A stretch of 62,236 bases of DNA, the filler included, from Globobulimina sp. (lineage: Eukaryota), in the NCBI GenBank assembly GCA_003354225.1. It is 12 parts of 12 records of this genome, joined end to end, with 100 filler letters (N's around TTAATTAATTAA, not from the genome) between each part and the next. Parts side by side here need not be neighbours in the genome. Positions count along the whole stretch, not along the records: positions 5,206 to 10,310 come from PIVH01000724.1; 11 more parts are not named here. One strand, written 5' to 3'. A model generated the notes under the pieces. That model was not told where the DNA came from, did not search any database, and saw only the letters and a program-made list of their open reading frames with translations. The position numbers were made by a program, and so were the translations under genes. Below are positions 176-15,611 of this stretch, in pieces; positions within the stretch are counted from its first letter, which is position 1, and each line of letters opens with the position of its first letter.

Positions 176-3100
176 ATGGCTTCGTTGCTTTACCCAGTAG
201 CTGACTTTCTGTTAATTTATCATTTGCAACATATTGTCCAAAGCCAAGAATCATATCGCTTACCAACAACAATCAGACCCATCCATTATGACTTAGACTT
301 CTTTCCCAAATTTACAGCACCAACTTACGAATTAGATGGTTACAGCCAAATACTAATAAATGTATCTCGGAAACATGTAGAAAATGAAGATATTGATTTA
401 TTAGAATCGCCATTCTCCATTCAAATGAACATTGGTCCAAATATGAGCATCATTGAGAGCCACCTCAATTTCACAGAATTGAACCACACAAATATTACAC
501 AATTAGTTGAGCTCCGACAATATAGCCCAACCACAGAAATTGTAACATTTTATTACAATGTTACCAATCAACAAATATTGAACCATTTAACAAATAATAA
601 TTCATCGCATCCATCAACATACATATTATGCCATTTACATTTCCAATTTGCATATCAAATGAAACGAGCTGGTTTACGAGGACTATATGTCAGTAGTTAT
701 CACTATGAATCCACGAACATTACCGTACGAAATGCTGTTTCATCCTTTGCTTTGCAGTACGCACGATACGCCTTTCCATGTTATGTCTCTCTTCCATCCA
801 TAACACAGATTTATAGTTTACTCACTTTGATGGCACACAAAAGGTTTTGACGAACCTGCATTCAAAGCGGAATTTGATATTGATATCTACGGACCAATTA
901 ATACCACCATATTATCCAACGCCGCAATTGAAACAGAAACCGCGCAAAGCCGTTTTGTGAGTGCCTGTACATATCAATATATTAATGGCGAAGCGCATCA
1001 ATGCAAAGATGTCAAATTTGAGACAACGCCGATAATGAGCACATATATTATCTCACTTATTATTGGATCGTATGACAGCATTTCTGCAGTTGACTCAAAT
1101 GGTATTATTCAAAGTGTTTATGTACCGATCGATGAAAGTGAGCATGGACAGTTTGCGTTGAATGCTGGCTTGCAAATCTTGCCATACTTTGAGGAGATTC
1201 TTGATTTCCAATATCCATTGACTAAGATGGACAATATTGCATTGACACAATTTTCATGGGGCGCATTAGGTACGTATTGTATGTGCAATTTATTCAATTG
1301 TGTATATTCACAAAAATGAATTAAACAGAAAATTTCGGAGCCATCGTATATAGAAAATTATCATTACTGAGTGAGGTTGAAAGCAGTGATCGGCAGTTAG
1401 CCAGCATTGCCACTCTTGTGTCTCACGAATATGCGCATCAATGGTTTGGAAATACTGTGACCTGCGCCTGGTGGGATGATACTTGGCTGAATGAAGGGTT
1501 TGCGTCATTTTTCGGTTATGAAGCCGCGCATATATTTTACCCAAATCTATTGATTTATAGTACCTTTCTAACTGCGATAAATGGTTTGATGATGAGTGAT
1601 GCCTCGATTTTTGTTGCCAGCACCATTGGCGTTGACGTAGAGAGTCAAAGTGATGTATTGGATATGTTTGGTGGCTTACAATATGTGAGGGGCGGTGCTA
1701 TAATACGAATGTTGCAGGGATTTATGGGCAATGCGTCATTTTATGGAGCATTACGAGAATATATTGCAACGTATCAATATAATATTGCTACGTCAGCCGA
1801 TTTATTTGCTATATTGGATATGTACACAGCAAACAGTGGAGTGATGGCGGAATCGTTTACGAAACAAGCTGGAATTCCTGTGGTTTATATGAATATTGAC
1901 AGTAAAACAAGTGAAGAGATAACACTTAAATTAAGACAACAAAGATTGGTAAAGGAAGGTCCAAGTTTCTATGCGAATGATACAAATGGGAAAGATTATG
2001 GTTACAGTAACTTTTCCAGATATTTTGATGGAGAATTAATTGAACAATTTGCGAAACAAAAATGGTGGATTCCAGTGAAAATCGAGACTGTGTCGGATAA
2101 TAAAACCGAAATTAATGCATTAATGAATGAGAGGGAATATTCAATTTCATTTGATAGAGTCACTGATGGTATGTATAATGAATATTATTTATTGAATAGC
2201 GGATTGAAGAGTTATTTTCGTGTTCATTATGATAATGAGTTATTAGCTATGATTAAAGAGTCATGGCATTCGTTATCATTTTGGAGTCAATTTAATATAA
2301 TTACAGATCGATATGAATTAATGGCATATAGCTATGCATCGAGTGTATCATATTTACAATTATTGAAAGATATTATTGATGAAAATGACAATGAATATGA
2401 TTATTTATCATATATTGTGTGGAATATTATAATTGATTCATTTTATACTATTGATGATCGGCTTTGTGTTTCGGATTCAAAGTCAAATGATAAAACGTTG
2501 CAAGCTTTTAGGCGATTTGCAAAACAATTATTGAAACCTGTGTATGTAGATTTGAATGGCTATGACATTGACGAAGCGGATGATACAAATATTTTAAATT
2601 TGCGCAATTCTGTCATTATGGCATTGCTTCGATTTCAGGATGAAAATGTCATTAAAGTTGGAGTTGATATATTGAATGATTTGGATGAGATAATCGTGGA
2701 TGAATTTGGTCAAATTAAAGGAATAAATGGTAATATATTGCAAGCTGTAATTACTGCAGCCATTGCCTCAATGGATAAAGATTTTTATCATTTATTGTTT
2801 GCTTTATATGGTAAAAGTGATGGTGTTCAAAGAGGTTACATTCGCTTTGCGTGGAGCACATTATATTGGAATAAAGATATTGTAATGGAAACATATGAAT
2901 ATATTTTGAGGGGACATGCGGTGAACGGCACAATATTTGAGTTTTCACCGAGTGATAAAGTGAATGGATTGAATAATTTGGCGAGCTGTACAGCGAATGG
3001 ATATGTTTGGGATGGATTGGGAGCTGATAATAATAATAGTTTTAATGGAACAGACTGGCAAATGTTATTTGAGGCAGGATCGAGTATTAATACTTTAATT

Positions 3101-3493
3101 CGAATGGTTGACACATTTGCGACAAGCAATAGATATGATGAAGTTTATAGGTTTTATTATGGAGAGAATGGTGCTTTACATAGAAATGAAAATAGTGAAA
3201 GAGTGATTAATCAAACTTTAGAAAGTATTGCAATGAATACAATGTGGATAATAAATAATCGACAAGAAATGGAGGAATATTTGGTTGAGGATGGTGATGA
3301 GGGATTGGAAGCGTATAAAATTGTATTTATTGTGGTTGGATGCATATTGTTTTGTATTATATTGTTTATACTGTTTTATTATTGCAAAAAAAGAAAAAGA
3401 AAAAGAACAGCAAACTTTAAACCTTATGCACAAATGACTTCTGATATTGATATTGGACATGGATATGGTGCTACTCATACAACTCGTAATTAA
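176..3493 (+). CDS. M1-family zinc aminopeptidase (aminopeptidase N-like), 3 exons, C-terminal TM helix
   Basis: Removing GT-AG introns 780-843 and 1270-1328 restores AFPC|FDEP and the GAL|EN motif in frame. HEYAH-x18-E (WLNEGFA) zinc site present; hydrophobic helix near C-terminus. Confidence 0.93.
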
Positions 3494-3514
3494 ATATTGA
3501 ATTTTTCACACTAA

Positions 3515-4708
3515 TCAAACAAAAATGGAATCAAATCCAAGTTGCAATATCTGTTCATTTAAATACTTACCAATCACAACCATTTTGCATAAGCATGCTT
3601 GTTTGTTATTATTATTATTGTCGATCCATTTTGTATTTCCTTGTTCAATTTCATATAAATCTTGCACAGCTGATAAATAATGATTGCTTCCATCCTTTGT
3701 CGGCAAAACTGCCTTCATTCGATAAATATCCATTTTATTGTCATTTGAATTGTCATTATCATTGCTTTTATTCTCTGCATCGTTGGTTTCTTGATATTGA
3801 TACTGATCATTCCATAATAACTCACTGAGCCAATCATTGACCTTATCCAAATCAACACATTTCTCGACACATTCCATATTAAAACTTTTTATATTCGCAT
3901 CGTGTGCACAGATCATATGATTCATGTCCTCATTCTCTTTGTTTTCCACTTCTTTATCAATGATAATATTGTTTTGTTTCAATAACATATCAAAGTTTGG
4001 TGGCTTAATAATATCATATGCGCGAATATAGAGCACCTCCGATAATTTATCAATTTTCGACCTTTCTGTGATTAAAATCTGTCCGACATTATTTATCGAA
4101 TGAATGAGTGACTGCAACTTATCCAAATCTGTCTGATTTTGGATTAAATCTTTTTTATTTATCAATATTTTGTCGGCGTAGGCAATTTGATGAATGATCT
4201 GCAATGATTGTTTGTCATTCACTCTCTCATCATCAGTATCCTTCAAATATGCTGTCAAATATTTGCCATCCACAACAGACAATACTCCATCTAAATAAAT
4301 TGAGGATTCTAAGTCCTGATCGATCCAAAACATTGAGATTATTTTTGCAGGATCAGCCATTCCGGAACATTCTAATAAAATATAATTATATTTCTTCTGT
4401 GATGCTAACTGTTCCACCGCCAATGCAAAATTATCACGAACAGAACAACAAACGCATCCATTTGCGAGTTCCACCACATTTGTGAATATTGCACCATCTG
4501 AGCCGGACATAAATGCATCTTCGACACCGTTGCTTGAATCACCAAATTCGTTTTGTATTATGGCCACTTTCTTATTCTCATTAATTAATAATTGTAATAG
4601 GTTGTTGATTAAAGTGGTTTTGCCAGAGCCTAAGAATCCAGTCACAATGGTTAATGGAATCACTTCTTGCTCTTCTGTTTGCGGCAAATCAGTAGAAACA
4701 ACTGCCAT
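3515..4708 (-). CDS. ZNG1: COG0523/CobW-family GTPase metallochaperone (ZNG1/CBWD-like)
   Basis: GFLGSGKTT Walker A, NEFG, GCVCC metal motif, ECSG, NKxD, and CobW_C-like C-terminus (YRMKA..VQDLYE..VVIG). Confidence 0.9.
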   Translation of the reverse strand: MAVVSTDLPQTEEQEVIPLTIVTGFLGSGKTTLINNLLQLLINENKKVAIIQNEFGDSSNGVEDAFMSGSDGAIFTNVVELANGCVCCSVRDNFALAVEQLASQKKYNYILLECSGMADPAKIISMFWIDQDLESSIYLDGVLSVVDGKYLTAYLKDTDDERVNDKQSLQIIHQIAYADKILINKKDLIQNQTDLDKLQSLIHSINNVGQILITERSKIDKLSEVLYIRAYDIIKPPNFDMLLKQNNIIIDKEVENKENEDMNHMICAHDANIKSFNMECVEKCVDLDKVNDWLSELLWNDQYQYQETNDAENKSNDNDNSNDNKMDIYRMKAVLPTKDGSNHYLSAVQDLYEIEQGNTKWIDNNNNNKQACLCKMVVIGKYLNEQILQLGFDSIFV

Positions 4709-4755
4709 GTAATGCCTTCAAAACTTTTAACGGAAAGTCAATTAGTTTACTTTAC

Positions 4756-4932: not shown

Positions 4933-5105
4933 ATGTCAACAGAAGCAACACCAAACGCATTTGAAGCAGGTGATGATGCAGAATTGTCAGAGTCTGGCAG
5001 TGAAACCGAATGGATTGATACAGACACGTCTTCTTGGGCTCGTCCATCTGGGTTGGTAGCAAAACATTTTAAAGAAGATGCTCAGGACAATGAAACACTT
5101 TACAT
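4933..5105 (+). CDS. Hypothetical protein N-terminus, truncated by contig end
   Basis: ATG-initiated acidic ORF that runs into the spacer. Confidence 0.45.
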
Positions 5106-5205
5106 NNNNNNNNNNNNNNNNNNNNNNNNNNNNNNNNNNNNNNNNNNNNTTAATTAATTAANNNNNNNNNNNNNNNNNNNNNNNNNNNNNNNNNNNNNNN
5201 NNNNN
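5106..5205. other. Artificial contig spacer (first of 11)
   Basis: N run, TTAATTAATTAA (stops in all six frames), N run; 100 bp; recurs about every 5.2 kb. Confidence 0.99.
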
Positions 5206-5293
5206 GAGACACAAACGATCGAGGACATTAAGCTCAAAGCAAAACTTTTTTGTCTTCGCAGCATCAAAAACAATGGATGCCCGTAGCAGCGAA

Positions 5294-5790
5294 TTTATTA
5301 TGGTATTTATGGCGGCGAAGCCGCCTCATTGTAGTTATTATGGTATTCATGGCGGCGAAGCCGCATCATTCTATTTATTATGGTATTATGGCGGCGAAGC
5401 CGCCTCATTGTATTGTATTATTTATTGTATTTATGGCGGCGAAGCCGCCTCATTATATTGTATTTATTTTGGTATTTATGGCGGCGAAGCCGCTTCATCA
5501 GCAGATATTGCATTTATTTATGATATTTATGGCGGCGAAGCCGCCGCATCTTATTTATTTTGGTATTTATGGCGGCGAAGCCGCCGCATCGAATTCTATT
5601 TATTATGGTATTATGGCGGCGAAGCCGTCGCATCGTATTCTATTTATTTTGGTATTTATTTATGGTATCTATGGCGGCGAAGCCGTCATCGTATTTATTG
5701 TGGTATTTATGGCGGCGAAGCCGCCGCATCAGTCGATATTGTATTTATTTTGCTATTTATGGCGGCGGAGCCGCCGCATCAGTCGATATC
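5294..5790 (+). repeat. Tandem array of 11 GGCGGC-GAA-GCCGCC hairpin units with AT-rich linkers
   Basis: Cores start at 5311, 5351, 5390, 5435, 5480, 5531, 5571, 5615, 5673, 5711 and 5761; spacing 38-58 bp. Confidence 0.95.
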
Positions 5791-5801
5791 CATATAAAAT
5801 A

Positions 5802-5865
5802 GTGATGATAGCTCAATACGAGCATCTTATTAAAGAAGATTTGGGTCTAAATCCCAATCATCACA
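5802..5865 (+). ncRNA. Minimal tRNA-like cloverleaf, copy 1 (TAA in anticodon position, no variable loop)
   Basis: GTGATGA TA GCTC aatac GAGC ATCTT attaaag AAGAT TTGGG tctaaat CCCAA TCATCAC A: perfect 7/4/5/5-bp stems; T-rich tract downstream. Confidence 0.65.
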
Positions 5866-6167
5866 TATTTAATTTTTGTTTTTTTGTTTCTATTTATGAT
5901 ATCTAGGGACTATAAAAGTGTTTTTTTGTTTCTGTTTTATAATTCTTGTATACAATAATAGGTTTTTGCATAGCATAATAAAAGTAAAATAAAGTTACTT
6001 TTATAGGCGTTTTTGGGAATAAAATTTCATTTTAGGGAAACGCAAGCTTTTAATTGACACAAATGTTTCTGTATTTTAATTTCTGTGAAAACCTTTCAAG
6101 AGTAAGTATTAGTATTTTATCAGAAGTCAGTAAAATCGAGGCTGGTAACGAGTGATGATAGCTCATT

Positions 6168-6229
6168 GTGATGATAGCTCATGGAGCATCTTATCAAATA
6201 AGATTTGGGTTCAAATCCCAATCATCACA
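6168..6229 (+). ncRNA. Minimal tRNA-like cloverleaf, copy 2 (CAA in anticodon position)
   Basis: GTGATGA TA GCTC atg GAGC ATCTT atcaaat AAGAT TTGGG ttcaaat CCCAA TCATCAC A, then TTTTTT. B-box GGTTCAAATCC and A-box-like TAGCTCATGG. Confidence 0.72.
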
Positions 6230-6351
6230 TTTTTTGTTTTTTATTTTGTGATGCAGCCAATGTTTGTTTTTATTATGTACAAGTTGTGTTTTTCTTTTCT
6301 ATTTTACTACCTCTAGGGCTTTTGACAAAGGAATTTCTGAAAAGGAAGGAT

Positions 6352-6598
6352 CATATCCTTCCCATATCCTTCCCATATCCTTCCTATATCCTTCCTATAT
6401 GTATCCAAGATATATCCAGATGTATCTCAGATATATCTGATGTATCTCCGATGTATCTCAGATATATCCAGATATATCTCAGATATATATCAACGTATCG
6501 AGATACATCTGAGATACATCTGAGATATATCTAGATAGATCTGAGATACATCTGAGATACATCTGGTTATATCTGAGATACATCCAAGATACATCTGG
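6352..6598. repeat. 11-bp-period minisatellite that switches polarity (long imperfect palindrome)
   Basis: (CCCATATCCTT)n, then (AGATGTATCTC)n, then the reverse complement (GAGATACATCT)n after about 6495. Confidence 0.85.
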
Positions 6599-6606
6599 TT
6601 TGTTGA

Positions 6607-9600
6607 TTGCGACACGCTGATGCCATACGACGCAATATTATATTAAGACAATTCATATTCGATCGACACGCAGATATTTTCAGACATTGCACAAAATTGC
6701 AGCAACATGAACATCATTTACAAAAATATGATTTTGACATTAGTATTGGTAAAGAATTCAAGCCATATTTATTATGTTTAGAACATAAATGTATCGTTAA
6801 AATGAAATCGATGCAAAATGTTGAACGACATTTACAAAATTTACACAAACCATTATATGACCAATTTATTAAAGAAGAGTCGTGGACTGAAAGGAAACCA
6901 AAAACATTAGAATCAAAAACAGAAACATTAGAAACAGATATTGGTAAACAAAGAAACAGAGAGTGGGAAACCTGCGATAATAAAAATTACAGAAACAAGA
7001 ATAAGAAACAAAAATTGTGCACAGAGAGTGAAAATGATGAGCCATATAATGATGATTTATTAGATGACTATGAATGGAGCAAATATCTGCCAGCATTAAG
7101 TGATGAAAATGAGGACGATGACGTTTTAAAGAATAATATCACAAATAATAATGCAGCAAATTTTAATTTTGAAAATAATGATAATAAATCAAATAAATCA
7201 CATTTATCAACAACAAATTCAACATCAACACCAACACCGATACCGTTACCAATAACATTTGCAAATATATGTAAATTCAATGTCGATTTACCAAATATTG
7301 ATGATATTACAGCACAAATAAAAGATTTAAATGCCATAAATTTACCACCTTTGCATTTACCATCAAAGCAAACACCATTTTCAATTTCAACATTATCTCC
7401 AATATCATCGCCAACAGCAACGCCAACAGCAACGCCAACATCATCGCCAACAGCAACTCCAACTGCAACACCAACAGCATCGGCAACAAAAATAACAGCA
7501 GAAAAGGCAAAAGAATGTAATTTATTTAGTATTGAGCCCAAACCAAATGACTCAGAAACACCTTCAACAAAACCACCGACTTTAAAAGAGTTCAATGCAT
7601 TTTTTGAAGAGGCCAAAGTTATAAAAAAAACAAAAATAAACAATACAAAGTTAAGTGTGAATTTTTATACACTTTTGTATAATACAAAATATCTCAAATT
7701 TAGTGGTGGTTTTGCCTGCAATGATATCATTGAAATAGATTTAAATGGATTACAATATAATGGGTGGTCAGTATCAAAATGTAATTATAACGATGGATAT
7801 TCATTATGTCAATGGTGTAGTATTAGGAAAATTGAATATTTTCATTGGGGTCCAACTATGAAAAATCACCTCATTGTTCATGTTAAACAATGCGTTAATC
7901 ACAAACCGTATGAAATTGTTAATTTATTATTTGAAAAAAGAAAAATTGAGATTATTGCACCTGAATTTATTACGCCGCATCCATTTATTATACGATTAAT
8001 TGATACGTTTGATAAAAATAATAAAAAATATAAAACAAGCAAACAAATTATAAGAAGCGCAGTAAGCAACACAGGATATTTTATATCAAAAGAATTATAT
8101 AACACAATTTTTAAAAATCTATTGAAAAAAATGAATTTGCGACGAACATGGGATCAAATTAATATTTTATATCAAAATCAAGAAAATGAGCGAGTTTTGC
8201 AGCAAACGAAGTAGATAAATAATGCAAATACAGCAAATATCATATTTAGTTATACATTTTTTAGGGGAGTAATAATTGCATCATTTACTGATATAACAAT
8301 TTATTTTGTTAATAAAATATATGATGAATTGCATACAATTCCATGGCAAGAATATAATGTCGACGGTGTGGAATCGTGTACAAAATATAAAGTATACAAT
8401 TTAGGCCATAAAAAAATTGGATACAAAAACGGCCATTGTTTACTATATAATGAGTTGGGATGGATTGTGGGTGATATTCCATTACAAAATGCCATTGAAT
8501 CAAATGACAACATTGGTAATTTTATTAGAGATTCAATATGGAGACAAATAACACATCCAAGAAGTGTTCGTGCGCATTTATTAAAAATTAAATTCGGTAC
8601 AGACGCAGCAAAAAAACATGGAAACGTTATTGTTTCCACTATTAAGCCAGGATTAAAACAGTTATGTTTGGATTATCAAAAAAATCATAAATTGGAACAA
8701 AATTATAACAATTTCGAAATAAATGGACATAAATATGATTTTGATAAAGTCAATGGGCTTATTGCCAAAGAAATAACTCATATTGTTCGAAAATCGACAA
8801 ATTTAATACCTATAAATCACCAAGAATATGAAGCATTGTCTGAGGCATTTTGGGCTGTTAATTATCGCTCGAAAATAGCCACAAATTTTATTGATATTAC
8901 CGATTATAAACAATTTATAATTAATGAAGAACAAAAAACGATTGATTTAAATACTTTGATTGGAAAATATAAATTAAAATATTCATTTGAAGAGTTATGT
9001 AAATTCCAATCGATATTTAAAATGTGGTGTTATTTAAAAGAGACAGAATCATTAGAATTAAAACAAACGATTTTAGATAAATTAAATAAGCAAAACGAAG
9101 TTAAAAAGCAAGTCTCTAATTTGATTGTGCATTTTGTTACAATTTATCCTCCAGAATTTGCATACCGTTTGCTGTCAATATTACATTTTGGTACTTGTTG
9201 GGATGATTTATTAGATGTTAAGCAACAAATTGATTTAAAATGCATTAAAAATGAGACGATTTATTTAGTAAAAATTACAGAATTCACAGTACCGCCCCCA
9301 ATTTATAATGAAATGTTATTATTTGCAATCCCTGAATTTGATGGTAAATTATTTGATGAATATGCATATAAAAACAAGTGTTTCCAGACACCTCGACATT
9401 GCCAATCATATTCATTAGCATTATATTGGTGGTTTAATAAAGTTACAATTTTTGCGCATCCATCAGAGACGAAACCAGTGATAAATACAGATAGAAAAAA
9501 GTGGAAAACACGACTTAATGTCTTGTATAATATGGTACATATTTTAGCGATTTATAATGGTAAATTTTGGAGTAATTTTAAGCAAATGTGTTCAAACAAA

Positions 9601-10310
9601 AATGAAGTCTGACATTTTAGATGGATACGATTATTGGATTATATAAAAATATATTTATTTTAAATGAGAATTATTACAACTTACGCGCTGAAATTGAAGA
9701 AGAATTACGCGCTGAAATTATGAATTTATGTATTGCTTTATTTAAAATGTTTGATGAATTAATTAATATATAATATGCGTTTTTTGGATAAATTATTTAT
9801 AGAAAATGGTGAGTTTATTAATTTGTCATTTAATGGATATAAAAATGTTGATAAAATGCCAGTTGATCAATTTAAAGAGTTGCATAATATGCATTCATCC
9901 AAACATAAAAAAATAAAATCATTTTGTTTAAAAAAATTAATGGTTATAATTCAAAAAAAATATGATCCATCAAACAATAAATTGGACGATAGAATAATTA
10001 ATGAAATATCATCGTTGCCCGCATACGAATCGTTCACTAAATTTGAGATTTTTAATAAAATATTTCGTTTTTTCAAATCGTTTGTTGTATATAATCTGTT
10101 TTTTTTTGTATATATTTATTGTTTATAATATGCAGAGTACATAGGACTACATGGGATGGTATGATTGAACAACAGCAAAAAATTAAAAAGAAAAAGAAAA
10201 GCAATTCATTACTGAGACGAAAACATTGTCAAACAAAATTGAAAAAAAAACCCAAAATCATTAAAGTACCATCTTTTGCTGTATTTGTTAATGAAAAAGG
10301 AGAAAAATTG
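6607..10310 (+). CDS. Large multi-exon orphan protein with BED-like and Cys/His zinc-finger motifs; start and 3' exons uncertain
   Basis: Intron 8211-8264 joins ORFs 6607-8214 and 8329-9612 in frame; probable intron 9535-9620. Motifs CLEHKC..NVERHLQNLH and CQWC..NHLIVHVKQC; PTAT-rich linker. Confidence 0.6.
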
Positions 10311-10410
10311 NNNNNNNNNNNNNNNNNNNNNNNNNNNNNNNNNNNNNNNNNNNNTTAATTAATTAANNNNNNNNNNNNNNNNNNNNNNNNNNNNNNNNNN
10401 NNNNNNNNNN

Positions 10411-15511: not shown

Positions 15512-15611
15512 NNNNNNNNNNNNNNNNNNNNNNNNNNNNNNNNNNNNNNNNNNNNTTAATTAATTAANNNNNNNNNNNNNNNNNNNNNNNNNNNNNNNNN
15601 NNNNNNNNNNN

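Follow-up and report, generated by a model that had tools for sequence, protein, structure and literature searches.

Two miniature tRNA-like units in a Globobulimina assembly belong to a dispersed family that may yield a non-decoding tRNA mimic

What kind of gene, if any, is represented by two tRNA-shaped units that lie on one contig of a Globobulimina sp. assembly (GCA_003354225.1)? The stretch of DNA analyzed (the window; 62,236 nucleotides, nt, filler included) consists of 12 pieces of ~5.1 kb each, joined by N44-TTAATTAATTAA-N44 linkers, and the contig bearing both units occupies 5206-10310. An earlier note on this stretch had described two minimal cloverleaves with identical stems and divergent loops, and had named processing signals, primers, decoys, and a new small-RNA family as candidate roles. 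Our reading, to which we assign a probability of roughly 0.55, is that the units are members of a dispersed, multicopy, tRNA-derived gene family of RNA polymerase III (Pol III) type in a foraminifer-like nuclear genome, and that they would yield a non-decoding tRNA mimic with a compact junction resembling that of mascRNA. The central features are given below, where R1 is a covariance model built from the two window copies, and registers A and B are two pairings of the middle arm (the arm at the anticodon position) that are defined further on.

5802-5865 (+): copy 1, a mini tRNA-like unit of 64 nt; T loop TCTAAAT; the middle arm takes register A or B; 95.5 bits with R1
6168-6229 (+): copy 2, 62 nt; canonical T loop TTCAAAT; middle stem of 7 base pairs (bp) with a 3-nt loop; 90.8 bits with R1
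6175-6185 (+): A-box-like stretch of copy 2, unit positions 8-18, beginning TAGCTCA; read from the sequence against the A-box consensus
6208-6218 (+): B-box-like stretch of copy 2, GGTTCAAATCC, at unit position 41; likewise read from the sequence against the B-box consensus
6230-6235 (+): T6 run immediately 3' of the copy 2 discriminator, resembling a Pol III terminator

The two small cloverleaves are real and present in the sequence exactly as first described. In both copies, a 7-bp acceptor stem and two linker bases are followed by a 4-bp D stem, whose loop has 5 or 3 nt; the middle and T stems are each 5 bp long and close loops of 7 nt, and the discriminator is A. In RNAfold, the cloverleaf of copy 1 is both the minimum free energy (MFE) structure and the centroid (-21.0 kcal/mol, z = -4.57), and copy 2 folds at -21.8 kcal/mol (z = -4.35), its middle loop closing to a 7-bp stem with a 3-nt loop; in neither case was any of 200 shuffled sequences as good. 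Alignment of the two copies confirmed that they differ in loops only, every difference falling in D-loop, middle-loop, or T-loop columns. Homology between the copies begins at acceptor base 1, and downstream they have only a T-rich tail in common. The units are shorter than any standard tRNA, and the likeness to mascRNA-type RNAs that had been proposed for them is supported.

We searched for further copies with a 24-mer taken from the T arm and the acceptor 3' strand, and recovered 11 loci in a metagenome collection (L001-L011) and seven in one genome record set (L012-L018). The same 24-mer had no match in viral contigs, where a viral origin was looked for. R1 matches all 18 of these loci (metagenome: 11/11 at 71.2-88.1 bits; record set: 7/7), and an R1 search of the 3.1-Mb record set, which is independent of the 24-mer, returned one further copy, L023, with a mismatched terminal acceptor pair and no T run. 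The family comprises 21 copies (two in the window, 11 on metagenome contigs, and eight on contigs of the one record set) and one divergent relative. The loci are all distinct, with flanks that differ even around identical units; for example, the L016 unit equals copy 1 over 64/64 nt, and only 113/154 positions are alike over the 150 nt upstream. In the window itself, R1 finds only the two copies, the next best place scoring 11.8 bits. A possible third window copy at 5060-5083 on the other strand was rejected as a chance partial match in coding-looking sequence beside a linker.

The divergent relative (L011:1062-1126, - strand) is tRNA-like and 65 nt long; its acceptor and T stems differ from those of the family, and its D arm, GCTC-5 nt-GAGC, is the same. 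The middle stem (5 bp) bears a tetraloop, the variable region has 5 nt, and a T run is absent; scores are 29.9 bits for R1 and 37.7 bits for RF00005, the Rfam tRNA family. This is a hint of mini units whose acceptor stems are unlike that of the family.

The conservation pattern was studied in an alignment of 19 copies (16 distinct sequences), from which L018, L023, and the L011 relative were omitted for insertions or divergence. The acceptor 5' strand is identical in 20/20 tabulated copies, though it is not fixed by the search pattern. Among columns not fixed by that pattern, 2/15 stem columns vary vs. 7/8 unpaired columns (Fisher test: P = 0.001), and the two varying stem columns are both sides of a single compensatory pair (C-G to U-A, three sequences), the D stem being GCTC/GAGC in 16 copies and GCTT/AAGC in three. 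Stem cells pair in 98.5% of cases in register A and 98.1% in register B over the 16 distinct sequences, so that the random stem disruption named earlier as a sign against the proposal is not seen in the further copies. Pairwise comparison of units (12 pairs) gave 94-100% likeness, against 52-87% over the 150 nt upstream in 11 of these pairs; the twelfth has only 15 nt of upstream sequence, all alike.

The copies also carry Pol III-type signals. A run of at least four T lies within 2 nt of the 3' end in 14/20 copies (background at random places in the same DNA: 3.3%) and within 8 nt in 18/20 (background: 9.0%). The canonical B box, with a TTC T loop (GGTTCAAATCC), is present in 10/20 copies; in copy 1, the T loop TCTAAAT makes the B box degenerate. 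Judged by sequence against consensus motifs, A and B boxes occur at tRNA spacing, as in Pol III type-2 genes. The canonical B box and T6 terminator claimed for copy 2 were both seen (6208-6218 and 6230-6235). With 21 copies, conserved stems, variable loops, and T-run terminators, the family resembles one of small-RNA genes, as the earlier note had proposed.

A short internal repeat after the D stem allows two registers of the middle arm. Register A has a 5-bp stem and a 7-nt loop, and lacks base 26 and a variable region. In register B, base 26 is unpaired, TCTT and the first AAGA pair (4 bp) around a tetraloop, and AGAT(T) becomes a variable region of 4-5 nt. For copy 1 the energies are -20.2 kcal/mol (A) and -19.7 kcal/mol (B). 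Among the 16 distinct sequences, the two registers are within 0.5 kcal/mol of each other in five (copy 1 included), A is best in five, and B is best or tied in six, B being as good or better in 11/16. The earlier claim that the units lack base 26 and the whole variable region is therefore correct for register A and incorrect for register B, which is best or equal in 6/16 distinct sequences. The register A winners are the five sequences with T at position 38, including copy 2, in which a 6-7-bp stem leaves a loop of just 3-4 nt; only 4/16 distinct sequences have the 5-bp/7-nt form as their MFE structure. Where L008, L011, and L001 carry substitutions that disrupt register A, the positions concerned are unpaired in register B, which also has a compensatory change of its own (U-A to A-U in L002, with L015 as a mismatched intermediate). 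Two copies with D loop AATGA and middle loop ATTGAAG (L006:40-103, - strand; L001:1768-1831, + strand) have a third fold as their MFE structure, in which the D region forms a 9-bp helix with the middle arm (-21.7 vs. -20.2 kcal/mol for the cloverleaf).

Read in register A, one acceptor/D/T body carries the triplets TAA, CAA, TGA, CGA, TCA, and TAT, and the middle loop is 6 nt long in 4/20 copies and 11 nt in 1/20. So many triplets and such odd loop lengths on one body argue against a family of decoders, and the suggestion that both window copies would read Leu UUR codons is not supported. Three marks of decoding tRNAs were looked for and do not hold across the family: a conserved 7-nt loop, a separate body for each anticodon class, and a D-loop G18 G19 that pairs with T-loop positions 55 and 56. 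A fourth, the RF00005 gathering score of 29 bits, is reached by copy 2 and by 8/12 units of L001-L011 (37.7-50.5 bits).

Detection by tRNA models is uneven. Copy 2 scores 40.8 bits with RF00005 in a 601-nt scan only; whole-window scans at gathering and E-value thresholds miss this match because speed filters hide the family. Copy 1 has no RF00005 match at E up to 10 in the 601-nt scan, so that the Rfam check proposed earlier succeeded for copy 2 and failed for copy 1. The gathering score is likewise not attained by four units with a TCC T loop, and tRNA was the sole Rfam family at threshold, no other reaching its own. ARAGORN in standard mode, another proposed check, found no tRNA in the window and turned down 12/13 units (window plus L001-L011); in metazoan-mitochondrial mode, it called both window copies Leu (taa and caa), among 33 mostly spurious calls.

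From the family, its conservation pattern, and its signals, all observed at the level of DNA sequence, we infer transcription, processing, and a role as mimic as follows. Each copy may be a self-contained transcription unit, with A- and B-box-like sequences inside it and a terminator-like T run after the discriminator, the predicted product being a tRNA-shaped RNA of 62-64 nt. The transcript would fold with its acceptor and T arms stacked in the manner of a tRNA. Its constant half, the acceptor/T-arm stack together with the D stem, would be read by tRNA-processing enzymes, and the arm at the anticodon position would be a short hairpin drifting among three forms: a 5-bp stem closing a loop of 7 nt; a stem of 6-7 bp whose loop has 3-4 nt, without junction linkers; and a tetraloop on a 4-6-bp stem, accompanied by base 26 and a variable region of 4-5 nt. 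RNase P and RNase Z would then cut the RNA, which would receive CCA and act as a non-decoding mimic. According to a crystal-structure paper on mascRNA, RNase P and RNase Z read the elbow and gauge distance along the acceptor/T stack (PMC11693755). Since processing enzymes read that stack, the invariant half of the unit would be the processing and CCA half, and the variable half is the one that decodes in a tRNA. As for a primer role, no site complementary to the unit 3' end plus CCA was found with up to two mismatches in the window, and none in 26 loci.

The T loop divides the copies into two clades. The 10 copies with a canonical TTC T loop, copy 2 among them, have no upstream array and just 4-38 nt of upstream flank in common; their homology runs from -4/-38 to about +100, with a T-rich rather than A-rich tail. 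The other 10, copy 1 among them, have TCT or TCC in the T loop and all lie behind a tandem array of 40-57-bp units. Such an array stands upstream of the unit in the window (5293-5779) and in L003, L004, L005, L009, L012, L013, L014, L016, and L017, and its repeat units contain a GC-rich 6-bp hairpin with a GAA or GGA loop. The hairpin stem has a compensatory variant between loci (GGCGGC/GCCGCC vs. GGCGAC/GTCGCC). The hairpin was also tried as a general upstream feature and rejected, being present in 6/11 copies with enough flank against a background of 21% and marking one clade only. Spread seems to have occurred at the DNA level, and half of the copies travel with the upstream array. That subfamilies share upstream flanks fits DNA-level copying and is unlike short interspersed nuclear elements (SINEs). 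The remaining features around the two window copies are:

5293-5779 (+): tandem array, 487 bp, period ~40-50 bp, with a GC-rich hairpin (GGCGGC-GAA-GCCGCC) per unit; stops 26 nt before copy 1
5873-5885 (+): T5 and T7 runs, beginning 8 nt beyond copy 1
5877-5967 (+): T-rich 42-bp repeat, 2.2 copies, 3' of copy 1; related T-rich sequence follows other copies
6152-6167 (+): 16-nt tandem duplicate of the copy 2 5' end; period 16, 1.9 copies, 100% match

Depth was examined with contigs from three runs of one sample, none of them registered as RNA, mapped to the stretch at 80% likeness. Run X1 placed 256 contigs on it, with a summed depth of 3047-4751 at copy 1 and a maximum of 33187 in the 3' half of copy 2, vs. 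4.84 in a single-copy bin. The listed variants of this run concentrate in the middle loop, and the flanks of the units are multicopy too. Among the contigs that carry family copies, most stop within 12-40 nt of the unit. Runs X1 and X2 of the same sample have single-copy depths of 4.84 and 3.9 and depths over the unit 3' half of 33187 and 117; the two libraries must differ in kind or in amplification bias, and because these depth ratios are ~280-fold apart, we quote no copy number.

The host is best explained as a foraminifer-like protist, with the units in its nuclear genome, judging from gene fragments on the contigs. Element-bearing contigs carry fragments of eukaryotic genes, namely a myosin head, RabGAP-TBC, and dsrm (a double-stranded RNA-binding motif), and the myosin of L001 is closest, among the named matches, to Reticulomyxa filosa (58% and 50%), followed by chlorarachniophytes (37-41%). 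With 21 dispersed loci and such neighbors, an organellar origin is not indicated, and neither of the known identities that were to speak against a new family seems to apply: the units do not look like SINE heads, having no body and no A-rich tail, nor like organellar tRNAs, being scattered among genes of nuclear type. The units are intergenic, adjoining genes in every orientation; in the window and L008 they precede a neighboring gene of the same strand, the arrangement is divergent in L007 and convergent in L011, and in L001 and L010 the unit lies 65-150 nt downstream of a same-strand gene. Eight short AT-rich contigs of 592-1568 bp (L012-L018 and L023, set G001), filed under the title of a gammaproteobacterial metagenome-assembled genome (MAG), carry the unit together with arrays of eukaryote type; the seven of them found by the 24-mer have GC contents of 0.32-0.41. 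They are probably host DNA in the wrong bin.

Several other observations concern the window contigs. The 12 pieces are 5084-5105 bp long and ordered by falling length, with linkers at 5106-5205, 10311-10410, 15512-15611, and eight more places; genes that flank a linker are consequently not genomic neighbors. The CobW gene of the window sits on a different piece from the units and was hence not used for taxonomy. Short tandem repeats follow the units on their contig, on the opposite side from the 487-bp array. Just 3' of copy 2, at 6399-6597, 11-bp tandem repeats form a long imperfect palindrome with 54-nt arms that are 89-91% complementary, and this palindrome draws sub-threshold Rfam matches to four microRNA families. 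Two long AT-rich orphan open reading frames lie beyond the units (6607-8214 and 8329-9612), neither with a Pfam family above threshold; for that at 6607-8214, no relative was found among 8000 scored candidates.

A number of findings weigh against the reading of the units as Pol III-type genes for a tRNA mimic. The stems are near-invariant and covariation is thin (one pair in register A, two in register B), which leaves gene conversion, besides selection, as a possible cause. In 10/20 copies a T loop of TCT or TCC is off the B-box consensus (C56 is present in four of these), and such a T loop should weaken TFIIIC binding. Decay is evident in L018 (insertions), L023 (a terminal mismatch, T run absent), and L010 (T run absent). 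D loops are only 3-5 nt long, with GG inside the loop in L017 alone and no G in 5/19 parsed copies; most copies have at most one D-loop G, vs. the two guanines needed by mascRNA. All copies perhaps come from one sample, and the loose ends of sequence after the unit are genomic flanks, not CCA. If the units were an inert repeat (tRNA pseudogenes, a SINE-like element, or a segmental duplicate without RNA function, with stems uniform through recent amplification or gene conversion), then the high copy number, the repetition of the flanks as well, the contigs that often end right at a unit in the fashion of repeats, the movement of half of the copies with a tandem array, the degenerate B box in 10/20 copies, and the decay of L018, L023, and L010 together with the L011:1062-1126 relative would all be expected. 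What such a repeat does not predict is that changes concentrate in unpaired columns (7/8 vs. 2/15), that units are far more alike than their flanks (64/64 vs. 113/154 in the case of L016), that T-run terminators are retained in subfamilies with unrelated flanks, and that there is no body or A-rich tail, homology stopping ~35 nt past the unit. We consider it possible but doubtful.

The remaining explanations give the units other roles. A role at the DNA level, in which TFIIIC/Pol III sites would mark chromatin boundaries or seed arrays and the RNA would be a by-product, agrees with intergenic units beside genes in every orientation, with the tight link to an array in 10/20 copies, and with the short tandem repeats flanking tRNA genes of Entamoeba (alluded to in PMC3079666); it seems improbable, since A and B boxes alone would suffice for it, the invariant acceptor stem and compensatory D-stem change being left unexplained, and since the B box is poorer in precisely the array-linked copies. 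That the 7-nt-loop copies (UAA, CAA, UGA, and CGA) are true miniature tRNAs, charged, reading UUR and UCR codons, and perhaps serving mitochondria, strikes us as very unlikely. All 7-nt-loop copies do have U33 and A37, and the discriminator is G in two intact Ser-type copies (L006 and L007) and A in all Leu-type copies, in keeping with cytosolic rules (G for Ser, A for Leu). The Leu labels of both window copies in the mitochondrial mode of ARAGORN point the same way, as do mitochondrial genomes: those of retarians lack tRNA genes (PMC10127745) and one planktonic species retains trnK alone (PMC13421374). Set against this are an identical body with triplets for at least three amino acids plus an opal-reading one, loops of 6 or 11 nt in 5/20 copies, a TCA copy with two relatives in which the register A stem is broken (-14.0 vs. 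-19.4 kcal/mol), and the lack of the long variable arm that the cytosolic enzymes for Leu and Ser use. A foraminifer is, moreover, reported to have ordinary tRNA genes for both amino acids (PMC3079666). A related conjecture, which we hold quite improbable, takes the units as mini tRNA-shaped RNAs specific to a foraminiferal lineage and made from many Pol III genes, with a junction that switches between linker-free and tRNA-like forms; the 7-nt-loop members (UAA, CAA, UGA, and CGA, with matching discriminator A or G) would then be working minimal tRNAs, barred by their shape from cytosolic translation and delivered to tRNA-poor mitochondria. The least probable of the readings is a processing signal of the mascRNA type, in which a longer Pol II transcript would carry the unit at its 3' end and RNase P, cutting 5' of the unit, would make the end of that transcript. 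The compact junction, the position of L001 and L010 units 65-150 nt downstream of a same-strand gene, and the failure to find a polyadenylation signal after one foraminiferal actin gene (PMC3079666) are consistent with such a signal; orientation to neighboring genes is inconsistent (upstream in the window and L008, divergent in L007, convergent in L011), the units have box-like sequences and T runs of their own, and tRNA is the only Rfam family at threshold.

If the units are indeed Pol III-type genes for a tRNA mimic, they would add to a short list. Few non-decoding tRNA-shaped RNAs are known, most of them single loci, with mascRNA and menRNA as examples; viral tRNA-like ends and the tRNA-shaped partner of the trypanosome signal recognition particle are further cases. 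A multicopy, apparently self-transcribed family in a rhizarian protist would mean that the compact-junction shape arose independently, and would supply many natural variants for probing the requirements of RNase P, RNase Z, and the CCA enzyme. For annotation, standard tRNA finders miss the units or call them tRNA-Leu, Ser, or Ile, and the units break short-read assemblies and turn up on contigs binned as a bacterial MAG. Data on tRNA abundance do not exist for any foraminifer, according to PMC11980380.

In the literature on foraminiferal and Reticulomyxa tRNAs and on protist tRNA-like Pol III repeats, a search to which the Reticulomyxa genome paper, supplements, and repeat libraries were external, we found no description of such a family, which appears to be an undescribed variant of tRNA-derived Pol III elements or tRNA mimics. 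Nuclear tRNA genes (RF00005, Pol III type-2) share with the units the 7-bp acceptor stem, the 4-bp D stem, the 5-bp T stem with a 7-nt loop, the box-like internal sequences, the T-run terminator, and the lack of an encoded CCA. They differ in length (62-64 nt in the units vs. at least 72), in the D loop (3-5 nt without GG in the units), and in the junction, where the units either lack base 26 and a variable region or have a 4-bp middle stem with a tetraloop; many "anticodons" on one body are also peculiar to the units. Reduced tRNAs of animal mitochondria are similar in their short D loop without GG, their AT-rich stems, and the mitochondrial-mode calls of ARAGORN, whereas the units lie on nuclear-gene contigs in many copies with Pol III-type terminators. 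Retarian mitochondrial genomes, as two sources report, encode no or almost no tRNAs (PMC10127745, PMC13421374).

Among dispersed elements, tRNA-derived SINEs and pseudogene repeats are alike in tRNA ancestry, Pol III box-like sequences, and many scattered copies, some of them decayed. The units, unlike SINEs, have no body or A-rich tail and end at the discriminator plus T run, and their cloverleaf is near-perfect, with changes that avoid the stems; the comparison was made apart from Dfam and Repbase, where a named match is possible. The tRNA arrays of Entamoeba (alluded to in PMC3079666) likewise place tRNA-type genes between short tandem repeats, as seen on both sides of the window copies, but there ordinary tRNAs form part of the whole repeat unit in long arrays, whereas here the units are miniature and dispersed among protein genes, with an array in half of them.

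There is also a resemblance to mascRNA and menRNA, cut from the MALAT1 and NEAT1 long transcripts. As described in PMC11693755, the D arm of these RNAs is small, their middle stem is longer and its loop compact, all eight junction linkers are missing, and the mascRNA elbow needs two D-loop guanines. Like them, the units are ~60 nt long, keep the acceptor and T arms intact, and have a reduced D arm; in copy 2 and the other T38 copies the middle stem is longer, its loop compact, and junction linkers are missing. They differ in that mascRNA and menRNA come from animal Pol II transcripts at one or two loci, whereas the units are multicopy, have their own terminators, and belong to a protist; the two D-loop guanines described for mascRNA are not conserved in the units, and there is no sequence match beyond general tRNA likeness. 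The mascRNA-like layout is absent from the six sequences that favor register B or tie with it, and is present in copy 2 and four other distinct sequences with T38, each of which combines a 6-7-bp middle stem and a 3-4-nt loop with two linker bases.

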